Source: a virus
IMG/VR virus record: IMGVR_UViG_3300013125_000006
Span: 1 to 64,000 of that record
Length of the DNA stretch: 64,000 nucleotides
Direction: 5' to 3' (one strand)
The translations under genes and the position numbers were made by a program. The number at the start of each line of letters is the position of its first letter. Position 1 is the first letter of the stretch. The notes beneath the pieces were generated by a model that did no database searches, was not told where the DNA came from, and saw only the letters and a program-made list of their open reading frames with translations. This document shows positions 1 to 43,552 of the stretch, one piece after another.

Positions 1-903
1 ATTTCAGATCCATTTAAATATGCTATAGGATTAATATTTAATGATATACTAGATAATAGAAATAGATTTATAGTTCCTGGAGTTCCAGAAACATATATAG
101 ATTTTGAAATGGTTGATGGAGATAAATTCACTTACCAAAGACAATGTGGAAGATTTCAAAATATAGACTTTATAGAGTCTGATTTTACTGGATATGCTCT
201 TAGATATTATTATAAGTCAAAGGCATATCAAAAAAACTACCAAATCTATTTAGGAGGAGAATTAAAGGAAAAATTTTTAAATGGTATAAACTCTGGGATA
301 AAATATTATACTATAAAAGATACTAAATTAGAAGATTTTTTGCCAAAAATTTATGAAAAATTTTCTGAACTTTCACAATATGAAGTGAAAAAATTGATAT
401 TACATGGGTTTAGACGAATGCACAGCTCTTTAAAATATGGTTGTGCGGTATCACTCAACACAAAAAAATATTTTAACTGTGTGGCTCATATAGGTGCAAT
501 ATACCTTGAACCCTCAAAACAGTTGAAAGAGTATAGTATACGAAGAGACAAGAAACTAAGAAAGATTGAGGCTTGAAAAAGAACTCCTTTTGATGGATAT
601 TATTATATAGGATTAAATGAAAGTGCATTTGAACAATTTATTGAAGATAACAAAACTTCAAGAGTACTTTTATATTTTAGAAATATAATGGTTAGAAAAA
701 TTAAAGAAGAAATATATTATAAAGACAAACATTTATATATATTTAGGATTAAAGAAGAAAAATTTAGAGGCTGACTATATCTTTTAAAAGATGTAAAGCT
801 GAGAAATGTAGAATATATAGGAGAATCTATTGACCGTAAATTCTCGCCATCTAATATTACTTGAAAAGAATTAATAAAAAAATATGAAAAAGGAAAGTGT
901 TAA
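1..903 (+). CDS. Hypothetical late-region phage protein, 5' partial (TGA=Trp)
   Basis: Frame is open from position 1 through the 109..576 ORF. It reads through 3 TGAs to TAA at 901-903 and overlaps the next ATG at 884. Confidence 0.7.
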
Positions 904-3154
904 TACTTTTAACGAGGGAATAAATTTAGATTTAAACCCAATAACAACTCCAAGTAATGTATTAACTGATTGTATAAATGGAACATTTATAACTTTTAAT
1001 GGAGACGAATTAGCATTACAAACAGATGCTGGAAATACTACTGTAAATGTAGTAAAAAAGGTAATTCAAGGAGATACAATAGAAACTGTAAGATTGAGTG
1101 ATGGATTCTATCCTTTAGGAGTAGAGGAGTATGGAGGAGTATTATACATAATATCTGGAAAAGAACCTGATAAAAATGTATTAGAATTTAATGATGCTAA
1201 TATATATTCAAAAGGAGAAATAGTATACACAACTAGAAATGGTGTAGATTATTACTTTGAAAGTTTATCAGATAATAATTTAAATACATTACCATATCAA
1301 AGTACTAAAAATTGATTATTTATAGGAATAAGAAAAGATTTTATAAATAAGTATGGACAAGTTGAATTTGGAAGTTATCCAAGCCCAGAGATAATAGATT
1401 CAGAAAAATTTGATTCTTCTAAAGTATTTCAAATATACAACTATTCTGGGAAACTTCCTGAGAATTTTAAAACAGAGTTATATTCTCCATCAGTAATAAG
1501 TGACTCTATATTTCAGGCGGGAGTATATGTAACATTTTACCAGAATGAAAATGAGGATTTAGATACTGATAACATATCATATTATGCATTTGATAATATG
1601 TATGGATTTATTTTTCCAAAGAAAAATTTAGATACTTCTCAAAGAAAAATATATAAAGTAAAATTATATCAACAACTTACCAATGGATTCATAGATTTAA
1701 CAGAGGACGTGTGGCTTAAATATGCCAGATTTGTTCAATTAAATTACGATCAAGAATTAAATTCAGAATCTATAATAAGATTTTGGTTTAATGATTCTAA
1801 TTTTAAATATTATTGTCCACATAACTATAAAGGAAAACTATTAATGTCTATAGAATTAGAAGAGTTAGATGTATTTAGACTAAATCCAATAGTAATAGAA
1901 TCTGGAATTACTGATTATGTAGTAACTTTTCCAATAACATTAACTGAAAATTGCGACTGATTTAATGTGTTATCTCCAGTAGTAACTGTAGCTTATACAA
2001 TAGATGGAACAGAACCAAATACAGAGATACCAACTAACGGATCTAATTTTAGGGAATTGCATTTACCAATAGGAGGAGTATTTTTAGAACTTCCAATAGA
2101 TGAATATTCTGGAAAAATATTAAAATATAAAATAATACCAGAATTTACTAGTGGAGGTTCAACATTTTGGCCAGCTTCAATGTATTTTCCACAACAATTT
2201 ATTGATAAACATACAATAAATGGAAGTGTATTAGTAACTGGACAATATGGAGATTATGCTTTAAAAGTAGAATATGAAGAATGTTATCCAACAGGTTCAG
2301 GATATAAAATTATTACTGAATTATCTTTAACTGATATAGATGGAAATTATGTAGATAATACATTGAGTCCTTCAGTAGATGTATATAGTTTTATAGAAGA
2401 ATCGGCATCTCCATCCGGAGAATGAGTTGGAAAATATATAGTTGATTCTAATAATAGAGCAAAAATAACAGAGTATAATCCACTACTTCCATTGACAGCA
2501 CAAGAATATATTTCTTCATTAGTAGAAAATACAACAGTAAGATTCTACGATGGAAGTTGTTTAACAAATCCAACTGCATATATAACTATACAAGTAAATA
2601 GAGACTTTAATGTTGATATACCAGTAGTTGTTTATCAAGGCTCATCACAGATATATGGAACTAAAGTAGGAAATCTCACATATAGATTTGAAGTATTAAC
2701 AGGAATAAACTTCTCAGTACTTGCTAAAGAAGGAATAGGAGCTTATGATACTCTTTCTTACATAGATAATATATCTTCTGATAAAACTATAAAATTTGGA
2801 TTAATAACTGTATTCTATATAAAATCCTATCATACTGGACTACAATACACAGATTATATACATACAAATGTTAGTTCAGAAGTATTTGGGGCTAGAATAT
2901 TAAGAAGTAGATTTACTATTGATCATTCATCTGGTTCTTCATATTCAGCAGAAACACTACTTCCAGTAGATATAGAATCAGGAGATAGTTCACTACTATG
3001 TGAATATACTTACAATGAAACATCTTTCCCAAGATATGATTTAATATTTAATAATATAGCAACAAATGACTATGATAATCTTGTTGGAGTTAATATTTCA
3101 ATAGAGGGAGATAATCACATCTTTTATACAGAAAATTTAAATATAGGAAATTAA
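884..3154 (+). CDS. Tail stabilization/muzzle-like protein, N-terminal-type part, 756 aa (TGA=Trp)
   Basis: ORFs 884, 1598, 1967 and 2492 share a frame and are separated only by TGA. The N-terminus NTFNEGINLDLNPITTPSNVLTDCINGT and the motif EFGSYPSP resemble crAss-like tail stabilization (P22 gp10-like) proteins. Confidence 0.65.
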
Positions 3155-3155
3155 T

Positions 3156-6100
3156 ATGCCATTACCAACAATAGGGCTTTATATAAATAATGGTATGTTC
3201 GGACTCCCAAAAAAAGGGAGTCTGAAATATCAATATAGTCCTTTTATAAATTTGCAAAACCCACTTCCGGATGCAGATAATCCACTTATTGGACTTACTA
3301 TAAATAGTGAGCTTGCTAATATAAATATAACGGAGCCTGTAGATTTGAAGGCGGAAGTCTCATATGATGATTCAGTAAATTTGACAGTAATTGATAGAAA
3401 TAATTCCTTGAAAATAGTAAACTCAAGATTTTATCAAACTTCATCTACTACATATGAAATAGCGGATAGAAAAGGAAATTTAGATACAAATATATATTCT
3501 GAGGAAAATTTTAAAATAGAGGCAGGACTAATAAAATCAGTTAGAACAATTTCTACTTTAGATTTTCTTGGATTAAAAGATGGTGGACGTCTTCCTGTTG
3601 GAAGTTATACTTTTTACTTTAAGGTTGCTGATGCTGATGGAAATGAATCTGATTTTATAGCGGAATCCGGGAAAGTAGTTTGTCATATAGGAGCAGTAAA
3701 TCACCCTCAATCAATTAGGGGAGGACTTATGGATGAGGTAAGTAATAAATTAATTAAATTTAAATTAAATAATTTAGACTTAGCCTATGATTATATAAAT
3801 ATATACTATACTAGAACTTCAGGATCCTCAGAAGAAGAAATAACAAAAGCATACAGAATAAAAGATAAATATAAAATAACTAATAACAATGTAGATTTAT
3901 CTATAACTGGATATGAAGAACACATAGAAATAGATATATCAGAAATAAATACTAGTTATACAAACTTTGACTCTGTACAAACTTTAGAAAATTGCCAAAA
4001 CATTTCATTTGCAGGAAACATTACAAATAATTATGATCTATTTAAAACATTGGAAAAGTATAGTCTATTTGTAATTCCAGAGTTAGCATATGATGAAGTT
4101 GGAATTGGTAATTTAGATCATTTATATAATGAATCTGATATATCTAATGGATACGAATATTATAATACAAAAAATATTTATTATAAACTTGGAAATTGGG
4201 ATGATGAAATATATAGATATGGAATTGTTTATATATTAAATAATTATACACTATCACCAGTATTTAATATAAGAGGAAGAAAGATAGTAGGACTAACAAA
4301 TGATTACACTCATTATAATTTATATGATGATATCAATTATTCAGAAGATTATATATTGGAAGGAACAAAAGATAAAAATAATCCAGAAAATATTAAAGGA
4401 GTATTTAAAATATCTGCGGAAGAAAAAAATACTTTTAATAACCTTGATTCTATAAAACCATTAGGAATAAAATTTAAATTTGTAAATAGTATTGTAGATG
4501 GAGATGGATTGTTTATAAAAGGATTAAAAGATCTTACAAAAGGATTCTTTATAGTAAGACAAAAAAGAATCCCAACTATTTTAGCTCAATCTATTGGAAT
4601 TGCCACAAGTGAAAAAGCAAAAATACCAGTAATTAAAGCTGTTTCTAGGACAGAAAAAATTGGATATGAATATTTAACGCAGGGATTTTTAAATAAACGA
4701 AGTGGGGAAGATTTACCAATACTTTCACCAAAATTATTTAAAGTAGACTCAGTTATAAAAAATGCTCTATTGTGTCCAGAAGCAAATCTAAGAAGAAATA
4801 TATTCAATACTTTTTTTAACTCTTCTCAATATATATTAAAAGAATTCAACTACAGTCCTTCAAATCAAACATTTCTAGAATATGAAGGTTCTGCGCCTAA
4901 TAGTTTTACATTAAAAGGATTGAAGGAAAATGCTAACGATGTTTCGTTTAGTGCAGAATTAACATTAGTAGAGCCAGAAATTGATTTAATAAGAAATTCT
5001 CAGTATGAATTTTCTTCAAAGGCTGGGGATAAAAACATAGCATATAAACATTTAGACCCAAATCTAGGAAGTTATGAAGATGTAGAAAATGAACAAACTG
5101 ATTGAAATACTACTACATCAAAAGTAAGAGGAGTTTATAATACCTTTGTAGGAACAAGTATAGCAAGCCTATCCCACGGAAAATATTATAATATTTTAGA
5201 GAAGGATTATAATTTTGAAGAAAGATGGCAAGATTACTTCAGGGTAAGATATAATGATGCTAATTCATTTTATCCTGTAGGAGATAGAACTTCTTGAGAT
5301 AATATGGGGAATTATTACATAGAAGAATTTGGGTATAATGAATATATTACAGGAACTTTATTTAGAGGAGATTGTTATATAAACACAATAACCCATAGAA
5401 TTAACTGAAATTTTATAGATCCAGAAATGACTACAAATAAAAAGATTGTAGATCCGTATACTTGGGCAAAGAATTTTAGAATTAAAAGAAAAGCTTCTAA
5501 AACTATTGAGGAAAGCTTAGGATCAGTTGTGGTTACCAATACTTTATCCTATAATAAATTATTAGATTTATTTACATATAAAGATATTTATGAACCAGAA
5601 TTTAGTGTTGGTGAGTCAGATCCTGGAACAAGTCATGAAATAGCATCAGGACTATTAGAACCAGATGATAAAAAGTTTAAAAAATATTCAGTAATAAATG
5701 GATTATTTGGAGCAGAGAAAATAAATAGACCTGATGTAAATGCAGTGCCACTTGGACAATGGGTAACTTTTAAAATTTGTAGTAATGTAAATTTAGCATT
5801 AAGAGATTTAGATTTTTCAAATCCACAAGAAGAGGCAATCCATAGAATGAAAAGAGGATTCTATCCACTACAAAATATGGATCCAAACAATTCTTTACCA
5901 GAATCAAGTGTAATAAATAGTGGAATAAGTAAAACTATTGGAGAAAAGAATTATTATGAAATTCCAGATGTTCCATTTATAAAAACAAATTTTTCAACAA
6001 GGATTTATTACTCAAATACTTTGCAATCATCTGCTTTCACAAATGGAAATAGGATTTTTAAATCAGTTAATTTTAAAGACTATAGTAAAGAATATGGTTC

Positions 6101-7436
6101 AATAATAAAACTAGTTGAATGATTCAATTCTTTAATAGTTGTTCTTGAACACGGAGTATTTATAATACCAGTAAATGAAAGAGCAGCTATGGCAAATGCT
6201 TCTGGCCAGACTGTTTATATTAATACAAACAATGTACTACCAGAAAATCCAATAGTTTTATCACATACTTATGGTTCTTTATGGGAGGATTCTGTAATTA
6301 AAACAACTAGATATGTTTATGGAATTGATACAGTAGGAAAAAAGATTTGGAGAACAAACGGAAAAACATTTGAAATTTTGTCTGATCTAAAAATTCAAAA
6401 ATTCTTAAATGATAATATAAAATTAAGAGAAAGTGATACTGATAAAACTGTAAACATTAATTTTGTAAAATCACATTATAACGCATTCAAACAAGATGTT
6501 ATGTTTATTTTTAAATATAATGATGTAAAATGAAATTTATGCTGAAATGAACTTACAAATAAATGGGTAACACAATATACATGATTTCCTGAATTTTCAG
6601 AAAATATTAATAATATTTTTTATACCTTTGCAAATCGAGATAGTCATAAATTAGCAGACAATAAATTATATAAACATGGTTTTGCAGGACTGGAAGAAGA
6701 ACAAGGAGATATTAAACCTGCGTTTTGATACGATACTCAATATCCATTTGAATATGAATTTATAGTTGGAACTGTTCCAGGAGTTCAAAAAATATTTGAT
6801 ACTTTAAAAATAATATCAAACTTTGCAGAACCTGATTCTTTCTACTATGAAGTTGTAGGAGAAGGATTTGATTGGATGATGTATAAAGATTTAATATTGA
6901 AATTAAATGATACTACATTATATAGTATTGAAGATATAACTATGTCTGGAATCCCAACTGAAAAGAATGAAACAAATGTTATGCTAAGATATGCCAGATA
7001 TTTGGATAATACAACAACCGTAAAAAAATTACCTTATATTTATATACAATCATTTAATGTTGATGATGCGGATTCTTTTTATAGAGACAGGGGTACAATA
7101 GTTCCTCCAGTAAATATGTCTGTTTTAAGAGATGTTTCTATAAGAGAATATAATAAAACAAAAGAAAAACTGGTAAATAGCTATCAAAAAGGTGCTAATA
7201 TAAAATCCTTTGGAAGAATGAGGGGAAATATGCAATATTTAGAAGATGCATGGACTATACAAATTCAACCGATAATTTTTAAATATGCTTATATGGTAAA
7301 TAATACATTAACATTTTCAAATAATGTAGAAATGAAGATAAGGGACAAATATTTAAAAGTTAGAGTAAAATATGATGGCACTCAATATGCTATAATAAAT
7401 GCAATAAAAACATTATTTACAATAAGTTATGCATAA
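3156..7436 (+). CDS. Tail stabilization/muzzle protein (P22 gp10-like), 1426 aa (TGA=Trp)
   Basis: ORFs 3156, 5427, 6189 and 6876 are joined through 8 TGAs. Motifs are FRGDCYI, KWNLCWNELTNKWVTQYTWFP (three of these W are TGA) and the C-terminal IRDKYLKVRVKY, typical of crAss-like muzzle proteins. Confidence 0.75.
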
Positions 7437-8685
7437 AATAAGTAAATATCAAAATCCGTGAGGAACATTGAGTCCAGAAGGATATTTAAATGGATTTATT
7501 CCAAATTCAGATGTTTTAAAAAGTCTTTTTCCAATTAATATTACTGAGAATTCTTTAAATACTCCACAGCAAGACTTAAATACCTTTTTTAACTTTAGTC
7601 AAAAATTGGCTGCATCTAATTTTAAGCCTATAGATTATCAATTCGGAAAAAACACTAAAGAAAAACTTGGAGAAAAATCACTGGTTCCTGACTTAACAAA
7701 AAGGTCAGGAACTGGTACTTATCCAGGATTAGAACCAGGAAATACATTACAATCTTTTTTGGGAAAAGAAGGAGTATTGAATGTTCTTGGGAATGCTCCG
7801 GAAGTAATAGATGCAGGACTCAATTTAGCAGGAGCAAAACAAGCTACTATAAAAGGTTTGGGAGATGATCTTTTTTCAAAAGGAACAACTGCTTTATGGA
7901 AAGGAGCATTACAAACTGGAAATCCATATGCAATAGCAGCAGCTGGAGTATTAAAAGGAGTAGATTATTTAAATAGATATGCAGGAAAAAATACTAAAAA
8001 ACAAGGAACTGATCAAACATTAAACACTGGAGGATATAATTTTCAACTAAGTGAAAATGCAGGACAAAAAACTACTCTATCAAAAAGAAAGTGAGCAAAG
8101 AATATAAATAGTACAACAAATAGAGTTGATACACAAAATTTATTAGCGGCTAATGCTGCATATAAAGATTTAACAAATCAAATATCTGCATCTAATACTT
8201 ATGGAGATATTGTTACAAAAAATCAAAAAAATCTACTTGGAGGAAATAGTTTAAATTTACTCTCATCAAAAAAAGGTGGTAACATACCATATGCTAAAAA
8301 TGGAACCAAAATTAATAAAGTAAGATTAGGTATCATTAAAGATAAAGTAAGAAGAAATATTGAAAAAATGAATGTTATACCAGAAGGAGCTTTACATGCT
8401 AGAAAAAATAATTATGATGGGGATCTTGGAGAACAAGTAACTAATAAAGGTATTCCAGTAATAACATACGAAAAGGATGGAAAGATACTTCAACACGCAG
8501 AGATAGAAAACTCTGAAATAATATTTCATAAAGAAGCTACAAACAAATTTGAGGAACTTTTTGATAAATATAAGAATTCTGACTCAGAGGAAGGTAAGAA
8601 AAAATTAGCATTAGAATGTGGAAAATTACTTGCAGAAGAAATTATTGAAAATACTAAAGATAATGTTGGACTATTAAATGATTAA
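7429..8685 (+). CDS. Virion cargo/structural protein, 418 aa (TGA=Trp)
   Basis: ATG at 7429 is in frame with ORFs 7468 and 8368 through 2 TGAs. Gly/Ala-rich middle; NVIPEGALHARKN and AEIENSE motifs are seen in crAss-like virion proteins. Confidence 0.65.
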
Positions 8686-8687
8686 CA

Positions 8688-9230
8688 ATGAAGTACGATA
8701 TTAAAAAAGCGAAATCTGGGATTCATATAAAGCCAGAAAATAAAGGAAAATTCACAGAAACTAAGAAAAGGACTGGAAAATCTACAGAAGAATTGACCCA
8801 TTCAAAGAACCCTTTAACAAGAAAGAGAGCAATTTTTGCACAAAATGCTAAAAAATGAAAACATCAGCAAGGTGGAAAATTAGAGGAACAAAAAAAGCTT
8901 AAAATAGAGTATGATAATTTGAAGAAATTTTATTTAGAAGCTAGAGAAGCAATAGGTAAAAATGATACAGAAAAGTTAAAAACTTTAGGTAATTTTGCTA
9001 AACCATATTCTTCTAATGATTTAACTAGGGATTATAATACTTTACAAAGTATAAGAAAAAAATTGGATTTTAGTCCAATTGAAAATTTTTTAGAAGAATT
9101 CAGCTTAACAATTCCACATGCTGGACAGCAGATAAGAGGAACAGTAAACGAAATTACTGGACTACATCTAAAAGAAGGCGGCAAAATAAATTATGATATT
9201 TCTAAAATTTTAGACCTGTGGAAAAAATAA
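8688..9230 (+). CDS. crAss-like virion protein with IHIKPENKGKFT...RKRAIFAQNAKKWKH motif, 180 aa (TGA=Trp)
   Basis: ATG at 8688 is in frame with the 8919 ORF. The TGA at 8856-8858 falls on the Trp of the recurrent NA(R/K)KWKH motif. Confidence 0.75.
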
Positions 9231-9796
9231 ATATAAGTATAAAAGATAAAATTTATACTGTAGAGGTAGCAAGTACTCAGGAAGAAAAAGAAGTAGGTTT
9301 ACAAAATAGAGATTCTCTCAAACCTAATGAAGGAATGTTATTTATATTTGAGAGTGAGCAGCCTGTTTCATTTTGAATGAAGGATACTAAAATTCCACTT
9401 GATATAATTTTTTTAGACGAAGATTTAGAAGTAATATTAATAAAAGAAGGAGTTCCTACTTCAGAAGAGCCATTATCAGAAATTGCTAATTATGTATTAG
9501 AATTAAACAAAGATTCTGGCGTAGAGATAGGAGACAGTGTAATTATAAAATATGATAAAAATACAAAAACAGATAGTAAGATGCTAGTACTAGATTCAAA
9601 TGGAGAAGTTCAAATGAAGTTAGAAGGTGGAGAAAGAATATTTTCAAGAAAACACACAAAGACATTAATACAATTTGCAAAAAAAGCATCTATTACAAAT
9701 AAGGATAATGATTATGTAGCATTAGGAAAAAGAATGTTTAAATTTTTAGAGGCTCAGCAAAATGCTGAACCTGAGTATGTTAAATCCAAAAATTAA
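9218..9796 (+). CDS. DUF192 family protein with C-terminal extension, 192 aa (TGA=Trp)
   Basis: GTG start at 9218. The sequence EVA...GLQNR...GMLFIF...FWMKDTKIPLDIIFLD matches the DUF192 signature, and its W is the TGA at 9374-9376. Confidence 0.85.
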
Positions 9797-9807
9797 ATTA
9801 AGTAAAA

Positions 9808-25300: not shown

Positions 25301-25537
25301 ATAGTTGGAGAAGAAAAACTTATTAAATTAATAGAAGATAATGTATCTAATTCAGCATATGATATGTTAGATGATGTATCTAAAATAGAAGTATTAATAA
25401 ATGGATTAGGATTATCTGTTTCAAAAAGTGGAATTTCAATCAAAGAGTTATGGGAATTTCTACAAATAAGTAAAACTGATCCTCAATTAAAAGCAATAAA
25501 AGAACAAATTAATAATTTGTTAGAAACCTGTAAATAA
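16325..25537 (+). CDS. Giant virion protein (~3070 aa) with SF1 helicase-like P-loop domain (TGA=Trp)
   Basis: Ten same-frame ORFs joined through 10 TGAs with no TAA/TAG. Motifs: IVLGGAGTGKT (I), IWISAP (Ia), LLIDEVT (II), AGDPTQ (III), IQGSEVD (V), FYTFMSRSK (VI). Confidence 0.8.
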
Positions 25538-31500: not shown

Positions 31501-34500
31501 TGTATCAGTTTGGCAAATATGATTACAAGGCAGTGACTTTAGATAATATTGGAGTCACTATAATAAATCTCGTTAACTGCGGGGAACTCCTGAGAGTTTT
31601 TACTACAAACTTAGACTAGTAATAGATCTAAGGGCTATAATTAACTATTATAGATATTGTAAAAAGGTAAAAAATTGGACAATCCGCATCCAAGCGTCCT
31701 AGATAAAATTTATAAAAATATAGACTTTTAAATGGATAAAATTTTATAAATTTGTATTTAGGATGAAGGTTCATCGACTATCCCGGAGGGGAGTAGAAAC
31801 TTTCATTTAGTATTAATTATTAAATGAATTCATTATGTTTAAAAGAAAAATTACTAAAAAGTTAAATGTAGAACAAAAGCAATTACTTATTGCTTTATTA
31901 TTAGGAGATGGAACTATTTCATCTAATTATGTTTTTAAACTTTCTCATGGAGAGGATCAATTAGAATATTTAAATTGGAAGATACTACTTCTAGATAGTT
32001 TAAATATAAAAAATAATGGTTTAAAAACATATATATCAAATTCAGGATATAATACTGGTAAAAAAGTTTTATATTCGCAAATGTCTTTAAATGCTACTAT
32101 AAAAGCATTAAGAAGATCTGTTTATTTACCCAAAAAGACTTTATCAAGAAATCTTTTAAATTGGTTAAATACTCAGGGACTTGCAATTTGGTATATGGAT
32201 GATGGACATATTAATGTTAATACTTCTAAGCAAAGGACTACTATCCAACATACAATAAAGTTTGCAACTTGTGTAAAGCTAGAAATAGCAACTATAATTA
32301 TTCAATATTTTTTAGAAAAATGGGATATAAAATTTAGACTTTTAAATGAAGGGAAAAATACATATTCTATTGCTTCTAGTACGGAAGCTGATGCTGAAAA
32401 ATTTTGTAAAATTGTAAAACCTTACATACAACAAGTTCCTAGTTTATTATATAAAATAAGAAAAGATTTAACTAAAGAAGAATTTATTCAAAAACAAAAT
32501 GAAGGTTTCGAAATGCGAGACATTATATATTAAATATAATGAAGATATAGTCAGTCTTTGTATGAAAGTATAAAGGTTAAACGGATATTGATAAAGCTTA
32601 TATGCTTGGATCTGGATTTAGTTCTAATGGACAATTTGAAGCTATATCTAAGATAAGTAATTATTCTAGTATAGATCAATTAAATGTGCTGGAAAAATTT
32701 CCAATACCAACCAATAAGAAAATAGAATTATCTACAGATGGTCTAGATTTAACAAACGAAACCAAAGAATTTTTTACTTATAGTAAAGAAGAGTCATTAA
32801 CAGATGTCATAGATAATATTGAAGAAACAATTGCAATGAATGAATTATCTGTAAAGCAATTAAATTTACTAAATATTATAATAAGAAAAGTTAATGATTA
32901 TGTAAAAAATACTGGAAATAGAAATGTTTTTACAACTGATAATAATAAGGATGCAAAAATATTAATAAATTTAATAAATAAGCATAATCTAGATAATGGG
33001 TATGTAAAAAATAAACACTCTGTAAAAAATTCCATTGTATCAAAAATAAAACAAATCATATCTTCTCCAAGTAATCAAATTTTAGCAAATATTCCAGTAG
33101 ATGTTGAAGTTTGGCAAAATGCTGCTAATGCAGCAATAGCCTCAAAAAACATAGAAAAAGAATTTTTGTCTTCATATGATATGTTTAGTTATTATAAACA
33201 ACAAAGAGACGCATCAGTAGGTAAGGATGATGTTGGTATAGCTGCTAATGGACTTAAAGTACTGTTTGCATTAACTAGTTATTATAACAATTACTTCAAT
33301 AATTTTTCTTCAAATAATTCAGAGGATATAAGAAGAAGTAATAAAACATTTATAAAAGAATTTAAATTCTCAAATGGAAAAACTTACAAAATTGGTGCTA
33401 TTAGTGATGTAGGTATGGATGATTCTCAAAAAGCTGCAATAGAAAAAGCTATTGGTAATTTTGATGCATTTAGAAATGATGCAGCAATTTCTTTATCTAG
33501 TTTTACATCTGCAGCAACTGATAATGCTAAAGAATTACTTATGGCAAAAATTAATGCAACAGTAGAATTAGCTTCAATGCATATCTATTTACTTACATTA
33601 GGATTTACTCCTGGTCAAGTTTCTGAAATAATGACATCTGAAATAATAGATGATGTAATCAGTTCATTAGAAAGTAACTCTTTACTAGGTGAAAATAGTA
33701 GTATTATACCAGTTATATTTAAGAACTTAGAAGGGACATATAAAAACAATGAATCAAAATCAAATGACTTAGCAGTACTAAAAGATATATATGATGGAGC
33801 ACAGGAAATTAAATTCTTAGCAAAAATCTTAGGAGCCAATCAAAAGAGATCTGCAAATGTAGAAAAAATAAATGACTTTTTAACATCTTTAGAAACTACT
33901 CTATATGCTAGAGAAAATAATGTGTTTGGCAATGATTTAAGACTTCTTAATGAGTGAAATAAATATAAAGATTCTCCAGATAAAGGAAAAGCTAAGGAAG
34001 TAAGAGAAGTATTTAAGGGATTGGTTGATAAAATTATGCAACATAATAAAGCATTAAATTCAAAACTGGATAGAAAATATGTAGAAGATTTACTTGAAAA
34101 AGCTAGCAATGTATCAGTAAGTTATGTAGATGAACAGGGGAAAAGACATTCTAAGTATGTAAGTATTATAGGAGGAAATTTTGATTTTAGATATTTTGTA
34201 GATGGATCAAAAGAGAATGATGAATACAGAAAATTAACAAAACAATATTATAATTTAATAAAAAATACTTATAATATATTTGATGTAATTGATGAAGTCC
34301 CACATTTTAAAGAAATGATAAATGGAATAATGCTTTCTCATAATATCTTAATGAATACTTCTATTAAATATGCAACTGCATTTACAGTAGTAAAAGATGT
34401 ATTAAGGGAAAATTCTCATAGAGTAGTATTTAGTGGTAAGGAGGATAATCCTAACCCAAGTATAAAAAATCAAATGGGAAATCCAGGATTATATCCACGT

Positions 34501-35538
34501 ATAAGTGATCAAATGATAACTAAATCATTATCTGGTATAGATGTTATGTTAAAATCAAAGTGGTTAAAAAGTGAAGCTACTTCTAAATTAACTTTTAATG
34601 TAACTAGTTTAATAAAACAATTAAATGATTATAATAGAGAAGCTAAAAAAGATGTAATAAAAAATTATTTAGTATATACGTCTGACGAAGCTTGGAGTAA
34701 TGATAATGTATCAAACTTTTCAAAGAAAGTAAATGAAGAAGATGCAGAAGATACAATAATAACATTAGACACTAATTATGGCATTGCAAATTTCAAAAGA
34801 TTAATGGAAGATATATTACTCCCATTATTACAAAAAAATTCTAATATATTATTAGACTCCTTAAAAATACAAGAAGTAAAAAATATATTTGGATTAAGAA
34901 CTTCTGGAATAGTGTCTACATTTTCATTAGGAGAATTAAACAATGCAGTAGTTAGAGATAAAGCCCAAAAATTAATAAAAGCATTTAATGATTTAGACAA
35001 CAACTCAAGTACTAAAAATTTAGTAAAAAATTCAGCAAATGAATTATTAAGATGAAAGGATTTATTCTATGTGTATAATTTATTATTAAATAATGAAAAA
35101 TATGGAAGTTTAAGATTAACCCCACTATTTGAGGATTATATAAAAGAAAAAGATTCTTTAGGATATGATTATGTGATGTTTTCTTCAAAGATAGATTCAG
35201 GAGAAATAAATTTATTTAGCATAGAGGATATTATGAACGAATATCCTGAATACAAGACAGCTTTAGAATCTGGGGATACTGAAACAGTAGAAATCATAAA
35301 AAGAAAAGCATTTAAACAACTTTCAAATGATATATTATTCTACGCTTTACAAAGTGGAGGAAAATTAACTATAAACAATGGGGCAAGGACTAATGAGAAA
35401 TTATCTGTTACAAATGGAGATTTCTTAGTAGTAACATCAATTACAGAAAGTCAAGATGCTAAGAAAACACAATCTGAATTTAGTGAGGTACTAAGATTAC
35501 TAAAAAGCAGAGGATTTATAATTAAATTTGAATGTTAA
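25547..35538 (+). CDS. Virion-packaged DNA-dependent RNA polymerase (crAss-like two-barrel RNAP), ~2980 aa; exons 25547-31540 and 32584-35538 (TGA=Trp)
   Basis: Same-frame ORFs joined through TGAs. ARIPAQSMQS, then GSDF|DIDK is reconstituted across the intron, giving the DxDxD-type catalytic motif of crAss RNAPs. Also HDG, GPQLDASH and DVGIAAN...ATDNAKEL motifs. Confidence 0.9.
31541..32583 (+). mobile_element. Group I intron in the RNAP catalytic motif
   Basis: P1 pairs exon AGTGACTTT with GGAGTCACT, with U.G at the splice site. P10 pairs AATATT with exon GATATT. Core elements AACTGCGGG, AATCCGCATCC, GTTCATCGACTA and AAGATATAGTC; terminal G at 32583. Removal restores the frame. Confidence 0.9.
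31835..32533 (+). CDS. Intron-encoded LAGLIDADG homing endonuclease, 232 aa
   Basis: LIALLLGDGTI and LAIWYMDDGH motifs; located inside the RNAP intron. Confidence 0.9.
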   Translation: MFKRKITKKLNVEQKQLLIALLLGDGTISSNYVFKLSHGEDQLEYLNWKILLLDSLNIKNNGLKTYISNSGYNTGKKVLYSQMSLNATIKALRRSVYLPKKTLSRNLLNWLNTQGLAIWYMDDGHINVNTSKQRTTIQHTIKFATCVKLEIATIIIQYFLEKWDIKFRLLNEGKNTYSIASSTEADAEKFCKIVKPYIQQVPSLLYKIRKDLTKEEFIQKQNEGFEMRDIIY

Positions 35539-35541
35539 ATA

Positions 35542-38500
35542 ATGGGAAAGTGTAAGTATATTTTAGAATTACCTGGAGGGGGAGTCATAACACTCCCCTC
35601 AGGTTTTGAAACTTTGGAAAAAAGTAAAACAATAGATAAATTATATGATAAATATTTTTCATCTAATAATGATGAAGAACAGCAGGAAGTGTTAAGAGAA
35701 TTATCTGGGTCAATAAAAGCTGAAACTAAATATAAAATAACCCCTGAAAAAATAAAAACTATTATATTAAAAAATAAAGACAAAGAAACCTTCTATAAAG
35801 AAATAAATAATATAATAGAAAATTCAGGTTCTTTTGATTCTCTTGGATCTGTATTATATGATTATTTATCAGAGGATAAAGGAAAGAACTATAATAAAAG
35901 GTTATCAGAACTAAAGCAGAAATTACAGAAACCTAGAAAATTAAGTTACTTTCAAAATATAGGAGCTTCTGGAACATTAGGTTTAACAAATTTAGTACAA
36001 GAAAGATATAGAGTAAATTCCAAAAATGAAGAAAATAAAATATTTGGATTTTACAATGATACTACTAAAAATCTATTAACTTTCTTAAAAATTCTTGCTG
36101 ACACCTATAAAAATAAAAATAGAGAGAATACTATATATGGAATACAGGGACAATTTCTAGTAAATGCATGGTCCATGGATGATATAGTATTATATGAACT
36201 TAACAATGATTTGTCTCTATTCTTAGGACTGTTTAAAAGAGAAGCATTAAAAGTAGATAAATCAAAACTTATGCCAATCTTAAAAGAAATAAATAAGATT
36301 ATAAAGTTTAAAAAGTATGGAAAAATAGACATTAATGAAGAAGATTTTGATATAAATAAATTTTTTATAGGGGAATTGGAAAATAATAAAGTGCAGCAGT
36401 CACAATTAGAAAAATTATTGGCATTAAGTACTGATAAAGATATATCAAAACAAATTGATCAAATACTTAATTTAGTTGCATTAACAATAAATCCAGAAAG
36501 TTTGGGATTAATAAAATCAATTAAAAATTTATTCTGGCAATTATTTCCAGAGACATATGGAAAGAACAATATATTAAAAGCTGTTGAAACTGAGAAATTT
36601 ATAAGTAAAGAATTAGAAATAGAAAAGGTATACAAGAATGATTTACTTCCATTTGATAGAATGAGTTCTCAAGTCAGAGATCATAACTATTCAATAATAC
36701 AAACAATAGAGGGAGACTTATATGAGAATAGTGTAAAAAATATTATACCATATCAGGATATAGTAAAGTTTCCTAGTGGTGACAAGGGTGTATTTGCATT
36801 AGTAACTCATATTTTTAAAAGAGGAGAAAATGTAATAGTCTATGGTAAATTTAGAAATCAATATGGGGAAATAGAAAGAATTGATAATGTTTTTAAACCG
36901 GGAGAACTTCAATATAGAAAACTGGAAGATCCAATATCACCAATGATAGAGGATGAAATAGTATTACCAAATGATGGGATGATGATAATATCAAAAGCTG
37001 AAATGAATCCAAAGATAGTAAAAGAAATAATATCTAAAGGAGATTTGGTAAATGGAAATCTAGTAGTAGGAATATATCCAAATGTAATATATGTGCAGAC
37101 TCCAGATAAAAAAATAAAATCAATTGGGTATGGAAAAATAAAATCAATGAAAGCTCTCAAAGCTTCCCAACTAAATAATGATAAAAAAATAGAACCAAAT
37201 AAATTTGTACAAATAAATGATGGAACTCAGTTAACAAAAGGAGATTATTTTTTATTTGAGTTAGATGGAAAAAAATTCTATAAGAAAATACTATTGGCGG
37301 ATGATACATATGTATACTCAATTGTAAAAGGTACAAAAGGAGCCGCGATAATGCAGACTGAAAAGAAGAATTTAATAGGCTTAAAGGATGCAGAAGGTAA
37401 ACTTACTATTGAGGATATATTAAGATTAAAAGAGGAAGTTAAAAATATTACTAGAAGTACAGCAACAATGTCTTCTTTCAGCAATAAAGAGCAAGCTAGA
37501 CCAGGAGATTTTTTCTTTTTTATGGATGGAAATACAAAAAAATATGGGGAAGTCTTGGAAGATAATAAAGTAATAACATATAATGAAGATATTACTGATA
37601 AAATAATTCTAAACTTAGATAAATTACCAGAAGTATTATTTTTTACTGATAGAGATATTTCTACAGATTATTTTTTATTTACTATAAGAAGTAACCAATT
37701 TGAAATTTCATTTAAAGAATATCCTGATAATGTAGCACTTGAAAAACAAGTTATATATGTAATACCAAAAAATTCAGATTTAAATAGTATTAAATTATTA
37801 ACAGGAGGATATGCAAATATAGGAAGTTACATAGAACCAGAATATTTTAACCCAGAAAAACATATAGATATTACAGATCTAATGAAAGAAAAATTAGGGC
37901 TGGATAAAAATCAAAATATGTGAGTTACTAAAAAATCTTCGGAAAGTAATAAATTCAAAAGAAATTTAGAATCTTTAATGGAAATAAAATATTTTGATTC
38001 TCTAGATTTACAAACTAAAAAAGAACTAGGAGTATTATTTCCTGGAGTATATTTTTCTTTATATAAAGCTAATGAAATAGATTCAAAAATTTATAGAGTA
38101 ACTTCAGTTAATGAAGACAAAGTAATTGCTCATTTTAATAGTATAAGTCCAACTGGAAAAATAATAACAGTTGAAAAAGAATTTAATATTGATGATCTTT
38201 TAAATAGGGGAAATGATAAAAATGCAATAGTAGGAAGTATAGCAAATTTATACATACAAGAAGGAAATAGAAAAATAGGAGCAGTATTAAAAGAAGTAAA
38301 TAAAGTGTCTGAAGAGGCAAAATTGGAATCTAGACCAGCTACTAATAAAGCAATAAATAAACTAATTAAAAGTTTATCAAAAATATCTAAGAAATTAGAT
38401 ATGGAAGTTTCTTTAGTAGAGGAAAAAGAAGGAAATTTTAAATCAAACCAAAAAGCAAAAATAGAGACAAATAAAAAGGGAGAAACAAGAATATTAATAA

Positions 38501-38946
38501 ATAAAAATATAGGACAAACAGAAGATGTTGTGCACGAATTTTTACACTTATTTTTAACTCCTTTAAGATATAAACATCCAGAAATATATCATTCTCTTAT
38601 TCAAACTGTGATTAAAAATCCAGATATGAACATAACTGATGCAGAAGAAATATTTGTTTCATATGTAGCATCAAAACTAGAAAGTCAGGAAGATTTTTTA
38701 GAAAGTTTCCAGGACATGGAATCTTTTGTAAATGGATTAAAAGTGGCATTAGGAGAAGTAAATGATGATTATATAGTAAGCTTTGAAGAAGATCCTATAG
38801 AATTATTAAAAACCCCATTAATGGACCTATTTCAAATAGATAGGAATGATATAAGCAGTGAATTAATGAATTTAGGAATGGTTACAACTGAGCCAATGAT
38901 GAGAGAATGAATGAAAAATAATAATATAATCTTAAATTGTAGTTAA
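35542..38946 (+). CDS. Large virion protein with zincin-like metallopeptidase motif, 1134 aa (TGA=Trp)
   Basis: ORFs 35542 and 37978 are joined, with readthrough to TAA at 38944-38946. EDVVHEFLHLF (HExxH) with a downstream EE. Confidence 0.75.
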
Positions 38947-38947: not shown

Positions 38948-41900
38948 ATGGGACAATGTTTTTATTATAAAAATGGCGAAAAAGTAGAAAATATTCAGGA
39001 TATAATAAAAAGTTTTTTCAAAGACAACTTTCAATTAAAAAATGCCGCAATATTTAGTAGTACAGAAATTCAGTCAAGTACAATAGATGCTATAAAGAAA
39101 ATAAAAGACACAAATTCATTTTCTAATAACGAAGAATTATCTGTTACTGATTTAATTACAAAACAAAATGTTGGTCTTTTTAATTTGTTAGGAATATCCA
39201 CAAAAGGAGGAAGATTGGCCCCAGAATATATTGAAGAAAATAGAATTTACAGTTATGTGAAAGAAAAATTAGATTCTATAAAAGATGATGTTGATATAAC
39301 AGGATTAGAATATACTCAAAATAAATTAGAAACTTTAAAGAATACCCCTGAGTTTTCAGGAGTTTCAGAAAATAAATTAGTATACTTATTAAGTCAAATA
39401 GAATCTGATATTAAATATGAAGAGGAAACTAAGAACTTCGGAATATTATTGCATGATGTAATATCTTCAAAAATAAGAGATACTGGCTATAAGAATAAGG
39501 TGTTAAAATATATAAAGGATAATAAAGGGAATAGCATATTAGGAGACTATTCAGATGAAGAATGAGTAAATAAAATTGATGAAATTTCTGATTCAATAGT
39601 AGAGAAAATAAAAAACATAGAAAAATCTGGGGCTTTTATAACTGAAATTTTTCTATCAAGTCTACCAAATACTCCTATAAATACATATTCAAAAGGATTA
39701 AAGGGTAAAATAGACTTAATAGCTGTAGACTCAAATGGAGATCCTCATATCTTTGAAATAAAAGTATCCAAAACAAATTACGATGATTGGGACGCAGCAA
39801 AAACATTAACATTAGATTGGCAGCTTGCTTTATATAGACAATTGCTTGGACAACACGTAAATATAAACAAAACAATGCTATACGTTATTCCTGTTTGACT
39901 AAGTGTAAAAGGTAATCCAAATGGAATTATTGTTCAAAATATTGTAAATAGAAAGTCAATAAGAAATAGTGGATTGAACGATACTGGAAGCATAACAGTA
40001 GCAGCTAATAAAATAATTCCAAGGGCAGTAATAGCAGATTATGATCCAGAAAGAATGGATATTTTAACAGATCAATTACATAAATTAATCCCAAATTATG
40101 AAGTTAAGACTGGGATAGAGGATTATGATGTAGATTCAATAATTGAAGCAGCAAGGAAAAGGTATGACAAAGAAAAAGTTTGAAGAAAATGGAACAATTT
40201 TGATGATGCACCTGGACTCAAAAAAGGTTATATAGAGGCTGCAACAGAAGAGGAATTTAGAGATCAAATTGAAAAATATGTAGCACATGTAAAGACTCAA
40301 GTAAATAGAAATGTATCTATATTAAAAGATGCTATTATATCAGCTATAAAAACTAATAATCCTATTCAAACAAGTTCTTATAATTCTGAGAAAGACATCA
40401 CGACTAATCACCTACTCAAAGAATATTTAAACGAAGAGTGGTCTGTAATTGATAGTATTCCTGAGGCATTAGCTATGGGATTAATAGTATTGAAAAATAA
40501 TAAGAATGGAAACATAAATTTAATTAGTTTATCAGCAAATCAATTTTATGCAACTGCATTAGAAAATGATTTACCAAATGTGAATTATGGAGATTTAGAG
40601 TTTTTAAAATCATTTTTATTTATAAATACTTTTAAAGATATGCTGATGCCACTTGGTAGTGGAAAATTAGCTCAAATAATAATATATAATCCATTAAATA
40701 ATCAAGTATATTCTAGGAATACCTATAATAAATTTGATGAATTTGTAGATAGAATGTATACTATAGGGTTTAGGGAGGAATTAAAACTAGATAAAGAAAA
40801 GCACATAGCTGGAATAACAGATATTGCTTTGTATAATCTAGATGCAAATTTAAGAAAATTTGATGGCTCTAATAAAGATGAAATAAATGAAATTTTTGCA
40901 AAGTTTAGAGAAACTAGTTTAGATGAAATAGATTTGGAACAGTTGATTGATATACAAAGAACTTTGTATGAAAAATTTCCAGACTATAAATTAAAAACTA
41001 TAAATCCAACTTTAAACTTTGATGATCCAAAAGAAGTTTTATTGGCATTGTTACAAGTAGCAATAGTATCAAAATCTCAAATGGATTTAACAGGGGATTT
41101 TCAAAGACTTTCAAAGTTCAGCTTTGGATTTTCAGATTTTAAAAGTTTAATAGCTGCATTATATACTGATAATTTAGAGAAATATAATAGAGAAGGAAAA
41201 AGAATACAAGGAATTGTTCAAGGGCTTATATGAACAACTCCAGATTGAGTTGCTTCAAAAGACTTAAAAAACATAAATAAAATAATGTCCACTGCGAATC
41301 AGCATATAGGAGAATCTATGGTAGCAATATCAGAAATTATATATGGGCATACAAAAAAATATTATAAAGAGATAGGATTTAAAGAATTTAACCGAGGAGT
41401 TATCGGAGAAACACAAAGTAAATACAAAGATTTGTGGCTTCAAAAAGACGGAAAAGTATCAAATGAATTCAAAACCAAGAATCCATATGTAGTTGATAAT
41501 GAAAATATACTTACTGATGCTCAACGAGAATATTTAAAAAATATATTGTTTATAATAAATGTATTTCAATATCACATACCAGATTCTGAGGCAAAAAAAT
41601 TAGACCCTAATAAATTAGAGTCTTTAATGGAAAATGCCACACTTAAAGAAGCTATTGAAAGTGGTGAGTATTTTGAAATGCCTGTAATAAGGAGGGAAGA
41701 AATTTCTAGAGTCGGCGGGATTGTAGAATCTCCTGGAAAGTTATGGCAAGATAAAATAAAGCCATTTATGGGAGAGATAAACGATTTAGTAGATCCAAGA
41801 GAACTTCTTCCAGATCAATTGGATATTATTGAAAAACAAAAGATGGGATTTTATGAAATGTATGATGTATATGGTAGGCAAGATAGTAACTATATTGCAA

Positions 41901-43552
41901 AAGCAATTGAAAAACATACAGTAAATTATTTTGAATGGAACTTAGATACAATTGCACATAGAGTTGCATTTAATAAAATCAGAAAATTTACTATGGATAA
42001 AAAACTTCCTATTATAAATGCTTACATATGATGGATTAAATTTTTAGCTGGAAAAGAAAATGAAGATATATCAAATCAATTGGAGTATATCTCAAATCAG
42101 ATGAGTCTGTCTATATATGATGAACCAATAATTGATGATGAATTTAAAGATTATGCAAAAGTAACAGCAACTTTGAAAAGATTATCTACTGCAATGTTAT
42201 TAGCCTTTAGACCTGCGTTATTTGTAAAGGAAATGACCATAGGATTATTTAAAGGAATGTCTTTAGCAGCTACTCAAATATATGGAAAAGATCAATTTAC
42301 AGTGCAGGATTTAAGTTCAGCATATGCAAAACTATTAGCAATAGACCATAAATTCTCTGAAGAATTTAATTTAATTGATAGACTAAATCACTATTACAGA
42401 TTTGCGAATATGGATGTTAATACAATATCTAAAAAATTGCAAACTGATAGACATGGACTATTCAGAGGAGTTGGAAGATATATGTATATGTGTAATACAA
42501 TTCCAGATTATTATAATAGGTTATCTATATTTTTAGCTAAAATGATTCATGATGGAAGTTATGAAGCACATAATTTAATTGATGGAAAATTTATATATGA
42601 TGCTACTAAAGATAAGAGATTTGAATATTATCTTGCTAATAGAAAAAACCATATGAAGAATGGAAAATATATTGCTGCTCAAAGTGATAAAAAATACAAT
42701 GAGCAAAGGCAGAGATATCTAATTCTCCAAGATCAATTAAATAAGGAATATAGCGGAGAAAGAGTGTTTACAGAATATGATGAAGAATTAGTTCCAAAAG
42801 CATATTCAGAAATAGAAAGAACAAGTTTAAAATCTTTCTCTGATATGGCTTATGGATATTATGATAAAGATGCTCAATCACAAGCAAATAATACTTGGTG
42901 AGGAATGACATGATTACAGTTCATGCAATTCTGGCCAGGTAAAATGAAAATGTGATTTGCTACTCCATCAGAAGAAAGTCCAATGGGAAAAATTCAACAC
43001 AAATATATAGTAGATAAAGATGGTACTAAAATATACCAATACCATAAAACAATAGAATCAGAAAATGGAAATATATATACAGAAGAAACTGAGGAAGATA
43101 CTGGTGATCCAGTATTAGAATGGGTGGGAACTCCTTATGAAGGATTATATTATTCTGTCGTAGGAACTTTAAAAGATATATTTACATTAAATTTTTCACA
43201 CATAAAGAATTCAGAAGAAAGAAATAGAAGAGCTTTAATGGCACTTGCTGATGCTGGATTAATATTTATGTTATTTAAATTTGTTCAAATACTACTTGAT
43301 TCTTTTATAGAAGAAAATGGAACAGATGGAATATCTGGAAGTTTAGCTTCAATGTCTAGCTCCATAAATAAGAAGGTAACAAATGAATATAATGTATATC
43401 AGAGTACACTTGGAGGAGTTAGTTCAGAGCCTGTATTTTTATCTTGAGGAAAGAAAACAGCTAGTGATGTATGATCTGCATTGAATGGGGATAAAGATAT
43501 CACTGAGGTAATGACTAGAAATGTCGGTGCTGCAGAAGTATTCAAATGGTAA
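38948..43552 (+). CDS. Large virion protein with PD-(D/E)xK (RecB-like) nuclease domain, 1534 aa (TGA=Trp)
   Basis: Six same-frame ORFs joined through 11 TGAs. GILLHD...TE...LKGKIDLIAVD...IFEIKVS...QLALY lies largely in the stretch the ORF track missed (39566-39973). Confidence 0.8.

Follow-up and report, generated by a model that had tools for sequence, protein, structure and literature searches.

Organization of the window

The window, the 64,000-nt stretch of DNA analysed here, is a portion of a large crAss-like phage genome and lies on a 77-kb contig. Its genes are arranged in two blocks, one on each strand, with the following features (TGA counts refer to in-frame codons):

109..903, + strand: late gene, 264 aa, three sense TGA (574, 772 and 862)
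884..3154, + strand: late gene, 756 aa, three sense TGA; no family match
3156..7436, + strand: Crassvirus muzzle protein, 1426 aa (Pfam crAss_MUZ, 90.3 bits, E = 1.3e-25), eight sense TGA (5103, 5295, 5406, 6120, 6531, 6543, 6582 and 6726)
7429..8685, + strand: late gene, 418 aa, two TGA
8688..9230, + strand: late gene, 180 aa, one TGA at 8856 (NAKK[W]KH)
9218..9796, + strand: DUF192 protein, 192 aa (Pfam PF02643, E = 5.5e-27), one TGA at 9374
10143..14402, + strand: giant late protein, 1419 aa, four TGA; a 1556-aa counterpart is found in MT835470
14402..16309, + strand: late gene, 635 aa, two TGA
16325..25537, + strand: giant protein, 3070 aa, ten TGA; MT835470 has a 2970-aa intact table-11 ORF
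25547..31540, + strand: polymerase-like gene, exon 1, eight TGA; ends in ...QI[W]LQGSDF, the first half of DFDID
31541..32583, + strand: intron-like insert, 1043 nt, splitting the DFDID (DxDxD) motif
31835-32533, + strand: LAGLIDADG homing endonuclease gene within the insert, no TGA, four TGG
32584..35538, + strand: polymerase-like gene, exon 2, two TGA; starts with DIDKAY
35542..38946, + strand: giant late protein, 1134 aa, two TGA
38948..43552, + strand: giant late protein, 1534 aa, 11 TGA
43598-44326, − strand: lysin-like gene, no TGA
43598..64000, − strand: replication and nucleotide-metabolism block in the standard code, continuing to 77264 of the contig

The frame of the first gene is open from base 1, and its relatives align from residue 1, consistent with an ATG at 109. 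The TGA at 7459, codon 11 of the 7429..8685 frame, is possibly located before the actual start.

CheckV estimates the contig to be ~43 % complete, leaving ~57 % of the genome missing; if this estimate is right, the full genome would be ~180 kb, and the two complete relatives, here called G002 and G003, are 172 and 213 kb, respectively. The genome is very AT-rich (~27 % G+C) and, by sequencing-run records, comes from lake water. Bases 1–20000 recur in Logan contigs of four lake-water runs with four single-base differences, none of which touches a TGA codon, and no indels. Logan contigs from lake-water runs also continue 1.2–2.7 kb past base 1, and the genome therefore continues upstream. Many short ‘joints’ in the Logan contigs, with sides of 20–24 letters, resemble spurious low-complexity matches to DNA of other organisms and were set aside.

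With crAss_MUZ, a signature virion protein of the Crassvirales is present in the window. The 77-kb contig lacks MCP, portal and TerL; in the complete relative G002 there is a Crass_capsid match at 46 bits. The muzzle proteins of the relatives that bear a tRNA(UCA) are just 51–57 % identical to that of the window. A PDB sequence search with the muzzle protein returned nothing useful, and a PHROGs search of the + strand late block gave almost no matches. Three group I introns score above the Rfam gathering score and others are weaker, and the endonuclease genes number at least six.

TGA as a sense codon in the + strand block

The initial annotation had described about 55–60 TGA breaks followed by continuation in the same frame, and 57 were counted: from 109 to 43552 the 14 + strand frames, read under table 4, contain 57 in-frame TGA, with TAA and TAG absent in frame. 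Each of the 14 terminates in TAA, and adjacent frames either touch or share a few bases. The accompanying claim that every true gene end is TAA or TAG thus held for these frames, with the correction that the TAA at 31544 is intronic and is no gene end. Off frame, TAA and TAG have a frequency of 9.7 % in the + block, such that a non-coding frame would stay open for ~10 codons. Set against that expectation, the frames extend over 14,237 codons without TAA or TAG (log10 P ~ -628), and chance is therefore excluded. In-frame TGA makes up 0.40 % of codons versus 2.9 % off frame, a tryptophan-like frequency.

Coding density and gene architecture both improve under table 4. Table 11 yields 45 stop-to-stop pieces of at least 100 aa (median 242 aa) covering 91 % of the block, as opposed to 15 such pieces (median 758 aa) covering 98 % under table 4. 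The table-11 sizes in the standard-code relative MT835470 are 1594/569/197/1556/614/2970/2281/[238]/991/809/1529 aa, and the counterparts in the window under table 4 are 1426/418/192/1419/635/3070/1999/[232]/978/1134/1534 aa. The giant-gene architecture predicted for the late block under table 4 is accordingly a mirror of the table-11 map of MT835470. Standard gene calling was also correctly said to shred the block and hide its motifs. The 3070-aa protein contains an AAA_19 (SF1 helicase-like) domain at residues 1733–1914 with TGAs at codons 1771 and 1854, and the 1534-aa protein contains a PD-(D/E)XK nuclease domain at residues 156–313 that is interrupted by the TGA at codon 206.

The tblastn alignments to relatives run uninterrupted over the TGAs of the window, and relatives keep TGA at the same sites. 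In six IMG/VR relatives of the 109..903 gene, all six have TGA at codons 156 and 252 and TGG at codon 222; likewise, the TGA at 8856 is conserved in four recoded relatives. At the level of frames and alignments, TGA is shown to be a sense codon throughout the + block.

In the standard-code relative, three orthologous late genes end in TGA; the late genes of the window all end in TAA.

TGA as tryptophan

Standard-code homologues were aligned and the residues opposite TGA tallied, which was the check proposed initially, and tryptophan was enriched (23–35 % of sites versus a 1 % background). In MT835470, W stands opposite TGA at 7 of 30 sites (P = 1.7e-8 against the 1 % background), with R at two, G at one and C at none; in MT835492 it does so at 6 of 17. 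Opposite the TGG codons of the window itself, the frequency of W is 41 % in MT835470 and 30 % in MT835492. W gives the best BLOSUM62 sum opposite TGA, and Gly, Cys and Arg show no enrichment.

The muzzle family allows the same comparison at greater depth. Its IMG/VR loci comprise 57 in the standard code, 13 recoded at TGA and 9 recoded at TAG (80 loci with DNA tallied). Among the 57 standard-code loci, TGG accounts for 44 % of codons at the TGA sites of the window versus 65 % at its TGG sites, and at sites 1143 and 1191 it is found in 56 of 56 loci each. At none of the eight TGA sites do the five most frequent codons of these loci include a GGN codon. Three sites are not W in standard-code relatives: 650 is Ala, 1130 is Tyr and 751 is Arg (AGA/AGG, 54 of 57 loci). 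In the 13 TGA-recoded relatives, the TGA sites of the window are occupied by TGA (44 %) or TGG (29 %) and its TGG sites by TGA (65 %) or TGG (30 %); judged from these alignments, the swap is a synonymous interchange. Among 120 database muzzle proteins W occupies seven of the eight TGA sites in 83–100 %, a figure that possibly reflects code-4 gene calling in part and was not counted.

Each of the motifs quoted in the initial annotation does contain a TGA at its bracketed position (9374, SF[W]MK; 8856, NAKK[W]KH; 6543, LC[W]NE; 6582, YT[W]FP). That these fall on conserved tryptophans was borne out for DUF192, where the TGA at 9374 aligns with a conserved W of two bacterial crystal structures (PDB 3pjy and 3m7a) and is W in both MT835470 and MT835492, and failed for LC[W]NE, which is site 1130, a Tyr in standard-code relatives. 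Codon usage points the same way as the alignments: the + block has 57 TGA and 70 TGG, and its tryptophan fraction is 0.49 % from TGG alone and 0.89 % with TGA, the early block having 1.03 %. Taken as statistics rather than site by site, these comparisons support the reading of TGA as Trp in the + block.

The standard code of the − strand block

The 52 table-11 genes of the − strand block (9,559 codons) contain 98 TGG and no internal TGA; internal TGA within the block is confined to homing endonuclease genes. About six core genes apparently end in TGA. Sense TGA is thereby restricted to one block, and two codes are present in one genome. The label ‘late’ for the + block follows from its gene content (muzzle, giant cargo proteins) and is presumptive.

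A TAA or TAG occurs 5–15 codons past the early genes that end in TGA. As a designed back-up stop this is uninformative, a stop being expected every ~10 codons in AT-rich DNA.

Decoding of UGA and alternative explanations

The 77-kb contig yielded no tRNA, whether whole or split by an intron. ARAGORN (default settings, introns allowed, and relaxed thresholds) detected no UCA anticodon on it, the relaxed and intron runs giving implausible matches only, and an Rfam search of the contig to E = 1 gave no tRNA-like match. Searches with RF-1 and tRNA-synt_1b (release factor and TrpRS) found none in the contig or in three relatives. The candidates that the initial annotation had named for decoding (tRNA(UCA), TrpRS and a release factor) were not found on this ~43 % of the genome; the complete relatives do carry tRNA(UCA). 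G002 and G003 each have one 74-nt cloverleaf tRNA with anticodon UCA and discriminator G, and its CU-UCA-AA loop resembles their own tRNA-Trp(CCA). In G002 it lies at the upstream end of the late-strand block, in a group of small genes that contain no TGA, and by synteny its expected position in the phage of the window is tens of kilobases upstream of base 1. Many recoded phages are without a detectable suppressor (Yutin 2021, PMC7886860; Borges 2021, 10.1101/2021.08.26.457843).

The genome is very probably a two-code genome whose missing part encodes a tRNA-Trp-like opal suppressor; a suppressor tRNA(UCA) in this phage would be an extrapolation from the relatives. In the proposed mechanism, the − strand block, with TGG only and TGA as apparent stop, would be readable by a host that presumably uses the standard code. 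The phage tRNA(UCA), encoded on the missing part as a tRNA-Trp-like opal suppressor, would then be made, and ribosomes would read through UGA. Full-length virion and cargo proteins would be possible only after this switch, and the recoding may thus have a timing function.

Four other explanations were weighed. In the first, the recoding is real and the decoder of UGA is a suppressor of the host, a divergent RNA missed by tRNA finders, or a modified host tRNA-Trp or RF2. The 77 kb free of tRNAs fit such a decoder, as do the finding of a TGA suppressor in just ~35 % of code-4 phage genomes (Borges 2021 preprint, 10.1101/2021.08.26.457843) and the several opal-recoded Zeta genomes without a detected suppressor (table, PMC12386605). 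However, ~57 % of the genome is missing, both complete relatives have a canonical tRNA(UCA), and the locus at which synteny with G002 would place it is off the contig, making this an unlikely explanation.

A table-4 host, with UGA as its own Trp codon and a code that the phage shares without any switch, would agree with the low G+C, which is like that of code-4 organisms, and with the suppressor not being found on the contig. Such a host is very improbable given the replication block, which uses TGG exclusively under the same AT bias and in which about six core genes seem to end at TGA. The relatives, moreover, encode their own tRNA(UCA), and standard, TGA-recoded and TAG-recoded members are mixed in the one muzzle family; the code therefore follows the phage lineage.

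Assignment of UGA to another residue, namely Gly (table 25, Gracilibacteria/Absconditabacteria), Arg, Cys or selenocysteine, is less credible still. Code-25 bacteria occur in lake water, Arg predominates in standard-code loci at muzzle site 751, and tRNAscan typed the tRNA-SUP-TCA of phage Lera as Trp or Arg (PMC12386605). Against this stand the excess of W over R, G and C in MT835470, the absence of GGN among the five commonest codons at the eight muzzle sites of standard-code loci, and the swapping of TGA with TGG in recoded relatives. The tRNA(UCA) of the relatives is a normal 74-nt cloverleaf with no long extra arm, a feature that tRNA-Sec has.

Finally, genuine stops at the TGAs, or artefacts (broken-up pseudogenes, mistakes of sequencing or assembly, or numerous short genes sharing a frame by chance), are suggested by the table-11 ORF list and nothing else, and have a negligible probability, as the frames are broken by TGA only and never by TAA or TAG, homology continues over TGAs that are conserved at the same sites in relatives, and assemblies of four separate runs reproduce the sequence without indels.

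Comparison with known recoded systems

Stop-codon reassignment in some crAss-like phages, which the initial annotation took as established, is indeed published (Yutin 2021, PMC7886860; Borges 2021; Zeta/Lera 2025, PMC12386605), and late-gene opal (TGA to Trp) recoding has been described for crAss-like phages, above all the Zeta group (Yutin 2021, PMC7886860; phage Lera, PMC12386605). The phage of the window resembles the Zeta group in several respects. TGA is Trp mainly in virion/late genes, including the muzzle, with replication genes in the standard code. Genomes are large (145–192 kb in Zeta; 172–213 kb in the relatives here, the contig being 43 % complete), large tRNA arrays with tRNA-SUP-TCA are present (here in the relatives), and both group I introns and homing endonucleases are numerous. 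Within the family, the code also shifts over short distances: some members are standard, others recoded at TGA or TAG. Unlike Zeta, which was described from human gut and mouth, the source is lake water, and the TerL, MCP and portal markers are off the contig.

The Borges 2021 preprint (10.1101/2021.08.26.457843) presents stop-codon recoding as a gate on late/lysis genes and describes the TGA-recoded Agate and Jade phages. As in these, standard-code replication genes lie beside recoded structural genes, a suppressor tRNA is the proposed switch, and the recoded block no longer uses TGA as a stop. The phage of the window differs in belonging to a different lineage, the Crassvirales. The RF1/TrpRS ‘code-change operon’ of Jade was not found on the contig or in the complete relatives and, unlike in the Borges model, the recoded block yielded no lysis cassette.

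Table 4 organisms such as Mycoplasma and Spiroplasma likewise have UGA as Trp and are AT-rich, theirs being decoded by tRNA-Trp(UCA). In these bacteria the whole genome is in table 4 and RF2 is lost. Here, in contrast, one block only uses UGA as Trp, and the other stops at TGA or avoids it.

Publications already cover this recoding, its confinement to late genes and the model of a suppressor tRNA, and no new question is opened. The practical value is correct annotation: ~45 fragments under table 11 become 13 genes under table 4 plus one splice. The recovered genes include the muzzle, the 3070-aa helicase-bearing protein, a polymerase-like protein of ~2980 aa and the nuclease-bearing cargo protein, together with the endonuclease gene inside the insert. 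Additionally, the case supplies an example from lake water, with standard, TGA-recoded and TAG-recoded relatives of a single protein family, and families of this kind lend themselves to studies of the frequency of stop-codon reassignment and of the genes in which it appears.

The polymerase-like gene and its insert

The single 2833-aa ORF of relative G002 aligns to the polymerase-like gene up to 31540 and resumes at 32584, and the DFDID motif is formed over this exon junction (31540|32584). The TAA at 31544–31546 falls within the insert. Rfam group I matches in the insert are weak and in the correct order (31578–31688, E = 0.35; 32540–32572, E = 0.09), which suggests a group I intron. The gene has no Pfam match, and a PDB sequence search with exon 1 gave nothing useful; from the DFDID motif alone, the spliced gene is termed RNA-polymerase-like. 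Crassvirales are characterized by a giant protein of several domains that bears a DxDxD polymerase motif and is encoded after the tail genes. According to Yutin et al. (PMC7886860), Zeta polymerase ORFs appear more disrupted than recoding accounts for, whereas table 4 and one intron-like insert give clean, continuous giant ORFs here.

A tentative and rather doubtful extension is that UGA decoding could be one of two stacked gates on virion-packaged enzymes in a freshwater lineage of giant crAss-like phages, with recoding acting as a dosage/timing device and not as neutral drift. On such a dual-gate reading, the polymerase-like gene would require read-through of 10 UGAs plus removal of the insert, and the insert splits the catalytic DFDID six codons past a UGA. 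UGA is absent from the MCP of relative G002, the most abundant of the virion proteins, and likewise from the endonuclease encoded by the intron itself.

TGA as a sense codon in the late block

The window comprises the first 64 kb of a single IMG/VR virus contig. The contig is linear (77,264 bp, ~27 % G+C, 43 % complete by CheckV), lacks a terminal repeat, and consists of two convergent blocks on the + strand (1–43552) and the − strand (43598–77264), with a sign change in GC skew at ~43.5 kb. Four lake-water runs yielded contigs that match bases 1–20000 apart from four point differences, none of them at a TGA. These contigs reach 1.2–2.7 kb past base 1, thus the genome continues upstream.

Under table 11 the + strand (late) block falls into ~45 pieces; under table 4 it forms 14 abutting frames of 180–3070 aa. 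The 14 frames contain 57 in-frame TGAs but neither TAA nor TAG in frame, and every one terminates with TAA, which confirms the sense-codon observation of the initial annotation; the four sites quoted there are all TGA, each within its motif. TAA/TAG frequency off frame is 9.7 %, so the open frames are not attributable to chance. TGA accounts for 0.40 % of codons in frame versus 2.9 % off frame. Late-block products include the following:

3156–7436, + strand, Crassvirus muzzle protein (Pfam crAss_MUZ, E = 1.3e-25)
9218–9796, + strand, DUF192 protein
late block, + strand, 3070-aa protein with an AAA_19 helicase-type domain interrupted by two TGAs
late block, + strand, 1534-aa protein with a PD-(D/E)XK domain interrupted by one TGA

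Little was recognized by PHROGs among the other late-block genes. Alignments (tblastn) to two GenBank relatives, MT835470 and MT835492, cross the window's TGAs. The former (117 kb, 36 % G+C, standard code) has syntenic table-11 ORFs of 1594, 569, 197, 264, 1556, 614, 2970, 2281, 238, 991, 809 and 1529 aa, an architecture shared with the window's table-4 ORFs. In MT835470, however, TGA terminates three of these late genes and the intron endonuclease gene, whereas all late genes of the window end in TAA. The late-block TGAs are sense codons within single genes.

Identity of the residue at TGA

Tryptophan lies opposite 7 of 30 window TGA sites in the comparison with MT835470 and opposite 6 of 17 in that with MT835492; the background is 1 % (P ~2e-8 each). 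Trp at the TGG codons of the window is conserved to a similar extent (41 and 30 %, respectively). The BLOSUM62 sum at TGA sites is highest for Trp, with no enrichment of Gly, Cys or Arg. The TGA of the DUF192 gene (9374) is opposite a conserved Trp of the bacterial structures 3pjy and 3m7a. Counting TGA raises the Trp content of the late block from 0.49 % (TGG alone) to 0.89 %; that of the early block is 1.03 %. The comparisons support TGA as tryptophan in the late block, as initially proposed, with minor corrections.

Muzzle genes from 80 IMG/VR loci were classed by in-frame stops as standard (57), TGA-recoded (13), TAG-recoded (9) or ambiguous (1). In the standard-code loci, TGG makes up 44 % of codons opposite the window's eight TGA sites and 65 % opposite its nine TGG sites; it is present in 56/56 at codons 1143 and 1191, and in about half at 714, 989 and 1126. 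In TGA-recoded loci, TGA and TGG interchange freely at both kinds of site. Distant relatives carry a residue other than Trp at three TGA sites (Ala at 650, Arg at 751, Tyr at 1130). Thus, of two muzzle motifs cited as family-conserved, YT[W]FP holds and LC[W]NE (site 1130) does not. Codon 751 (TGA, window 5406) is Arg (AGA/AGG) in 54/57 standard-code homologues and TGA/TGG in recoded relatives; it looks like an Arg-to-Trp replacement, a single base from AGA.

A split polymerase-like gene

A 1043 nt intron-like insert (31541–32583, + strand) divides the DFDID (DxDxD) motif of a giant polymerase-like gene. In the alignment with a single 2833-aa ORF of the complete relative G002, the match runs to base 31540 (…QGSDF) and starts again at 32584 (DIDKAY…). 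Because this ORF is uninterrupted across both parts, 25547–31540 and 32584–35538 form one gene of ~2980 aa in two exons, putatively a polymerase from its motif and position. The TAA at 31544 lies within the insert and so is not a gene end. The insert shows two weak group I intron matches in the correct order and carries a LAGLIDADG endonuclease gene (no TGA, four TGG). This endonuclease is 69 % identical to its counterpart at the same place in MT835470, the flanking exons only ~24 %, which suggests a mobile element passing between phages of different codes.

TGA in the early block

The − strand block encodes dNMP kinase, thymidylate synthase, RNA ligase, DNA ligase, a Dda-like helicase, ribonucleotide reductase, primase and exonucleases. 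Its 52 table-11 genes contain 98 TGG and no internal TGA, and nine of its ORFs end at TGA. Homology of core genes (e.g. helicase, dNMP kinase) ends at or ahead of the TGA, consistent with a genuine stop codon. TGA therefore has two uses in this genome, as sense in the late block and stop-like in early core genes. In three or four of the nine ORFs one homing-endonuclease profile extends across the TGA, and internal TGAs on this strand are confined to such genes:

window 55540–56286, − strand, homing endonuclease gene, profile across TGA
window 58453–59268, − strand, homing endonuclease gene, profile across TGA
contig 65169–66128, − strand, homing endonuclease gene, profile across TGA, which is opposite Trp of two MT835492 paralogues
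contig 75794–76405, − strand, homing endonuclease gene, perhaps with internal TGA, profile across it

Other insertions are apparent on this strand. The RNA ligase (window 49064–51675) is split into N-terminal (51058–51675) and C-terminal (49064–49870) ORFs with an endonuclease gene between them (50081–50950, phrog_4645), which probably marks a further intron or the insertion of a free-standing homing endonuclease. Residues ~412–567 of the ribonucleotide reductase ORF (window 59970–62731) match terminase and endonuclease profiles and look like an intein; the 3′ end of this ORF enters a group I intron (59970–60255, Rfam 80.9 bits). Further group I introns cluster near the contig end (contig 74633–77187), with a GIY-YIG-type endonuclease gene among them:

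contig 75625–75848 and 76951–77187, − strand, group I introns over the Rfam gathering score
contig 74633–74778 and 75357–75510, − strand, weaker group I intron matches

The last gene of the strand (window 43598–44326), which lacks TGA, matches PHROGs of endolysins and of tape-measure lytic domains. If a lysin, it is not recoded, in contrast to the recoded lysis genes stressed by Borges et al.

A candidate decoder

The initial annotation had proposed searching for a tRNA with a TCA anticodon, a Trp-tRNA ligase or a release factor; no tRNA, TrpRS or release factor was found on the contig, which covers less than half of the genome. Among relatives with muzzle proteins 51–57 % identical are G002 (172 kb) and G003 (213 kb), both rated complete. 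Each has 25–29 arrayed tRNA matches and, on the opposite strand, one solitary 74 nt tRNA with a UCA anticodon, G as discriminator and an anticodon loop (CU-NNN-AA) shared with its own tRNA-Trp(CCA). Neither encodes a release factor or TrpRS. From these relatives, a phage tRNA-Trp(UCA) would decode UGA in the window's phage. In G002, where recoded genes are on the − strand, the tRNA(UCA) is surrounded by small genes lacking TGA, close to the upstream end of the recoded block; by synteny, the equivalent place in the window's phage would precede base 1 by tens of kb. We infer a standard-code host because TGA is avoided as a sense codon in the early genes, even though the genome is AT-biased. Recoding may delay full-length virion and cargo proteins, as hypothesized by Borges et al.

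Comparison with known recoded phages

Recoding is known from 243 crAss-like phages, with TAG as Gln or TGA as Trp, mainly in late genes; suppressor tRNAs are present but do not always match the recoding, and branches of the intron- and intein-rich Zeta group (145–192 kb) variously use TGA, TAG or standard code (Yutin et al. 2021, PMC7886860). In Lera, the muzzle and ring genes are opal-recoded and a tRNA-SUP-TCA is present (PMC12386605). The same block structure occurs in other clades, for which a timing model was proposed (Borges et al., preprint 10.1101/2021.08.26.457843). The window is a further example, matching the published picture in all features compared; the lake-water source is the only clear departure. 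No publication on recoded Crassvirales from fresh water emerged from a literature search, a weak indication of novelty; the main value lies in correct annotation of the late block.

Among the relatives, MT835492.1 (L005–L007) appears to be TAG-recoded: reading TAG as sense increases its ORF cover from 69 to 129 kb, and 11 window Gln positions are opposite its stops. No suppressor is among the five tRNAs of this unannotated record. G003 (L052:15160–15566, L053:10862–11037) encodes a tmRNA, and odd tRNA-like genes lie beside tRNA-Trp in both G003 and the relative G001 (L048:12280–12455), namely a ‘tRNA-Tyr(ata)’ and an 82 nt tRNA with a two-base ‘tc’ anticodon (ARAGORN). In G002, the major capsid protein gene (Pfam Crass_capsid, 29206–30636, L057:9206–10636, − strand) and three Laminin_G_3 genes (32676–38598) have no TGA and 7–10 TGG each, amid heavily recoded neighbours.
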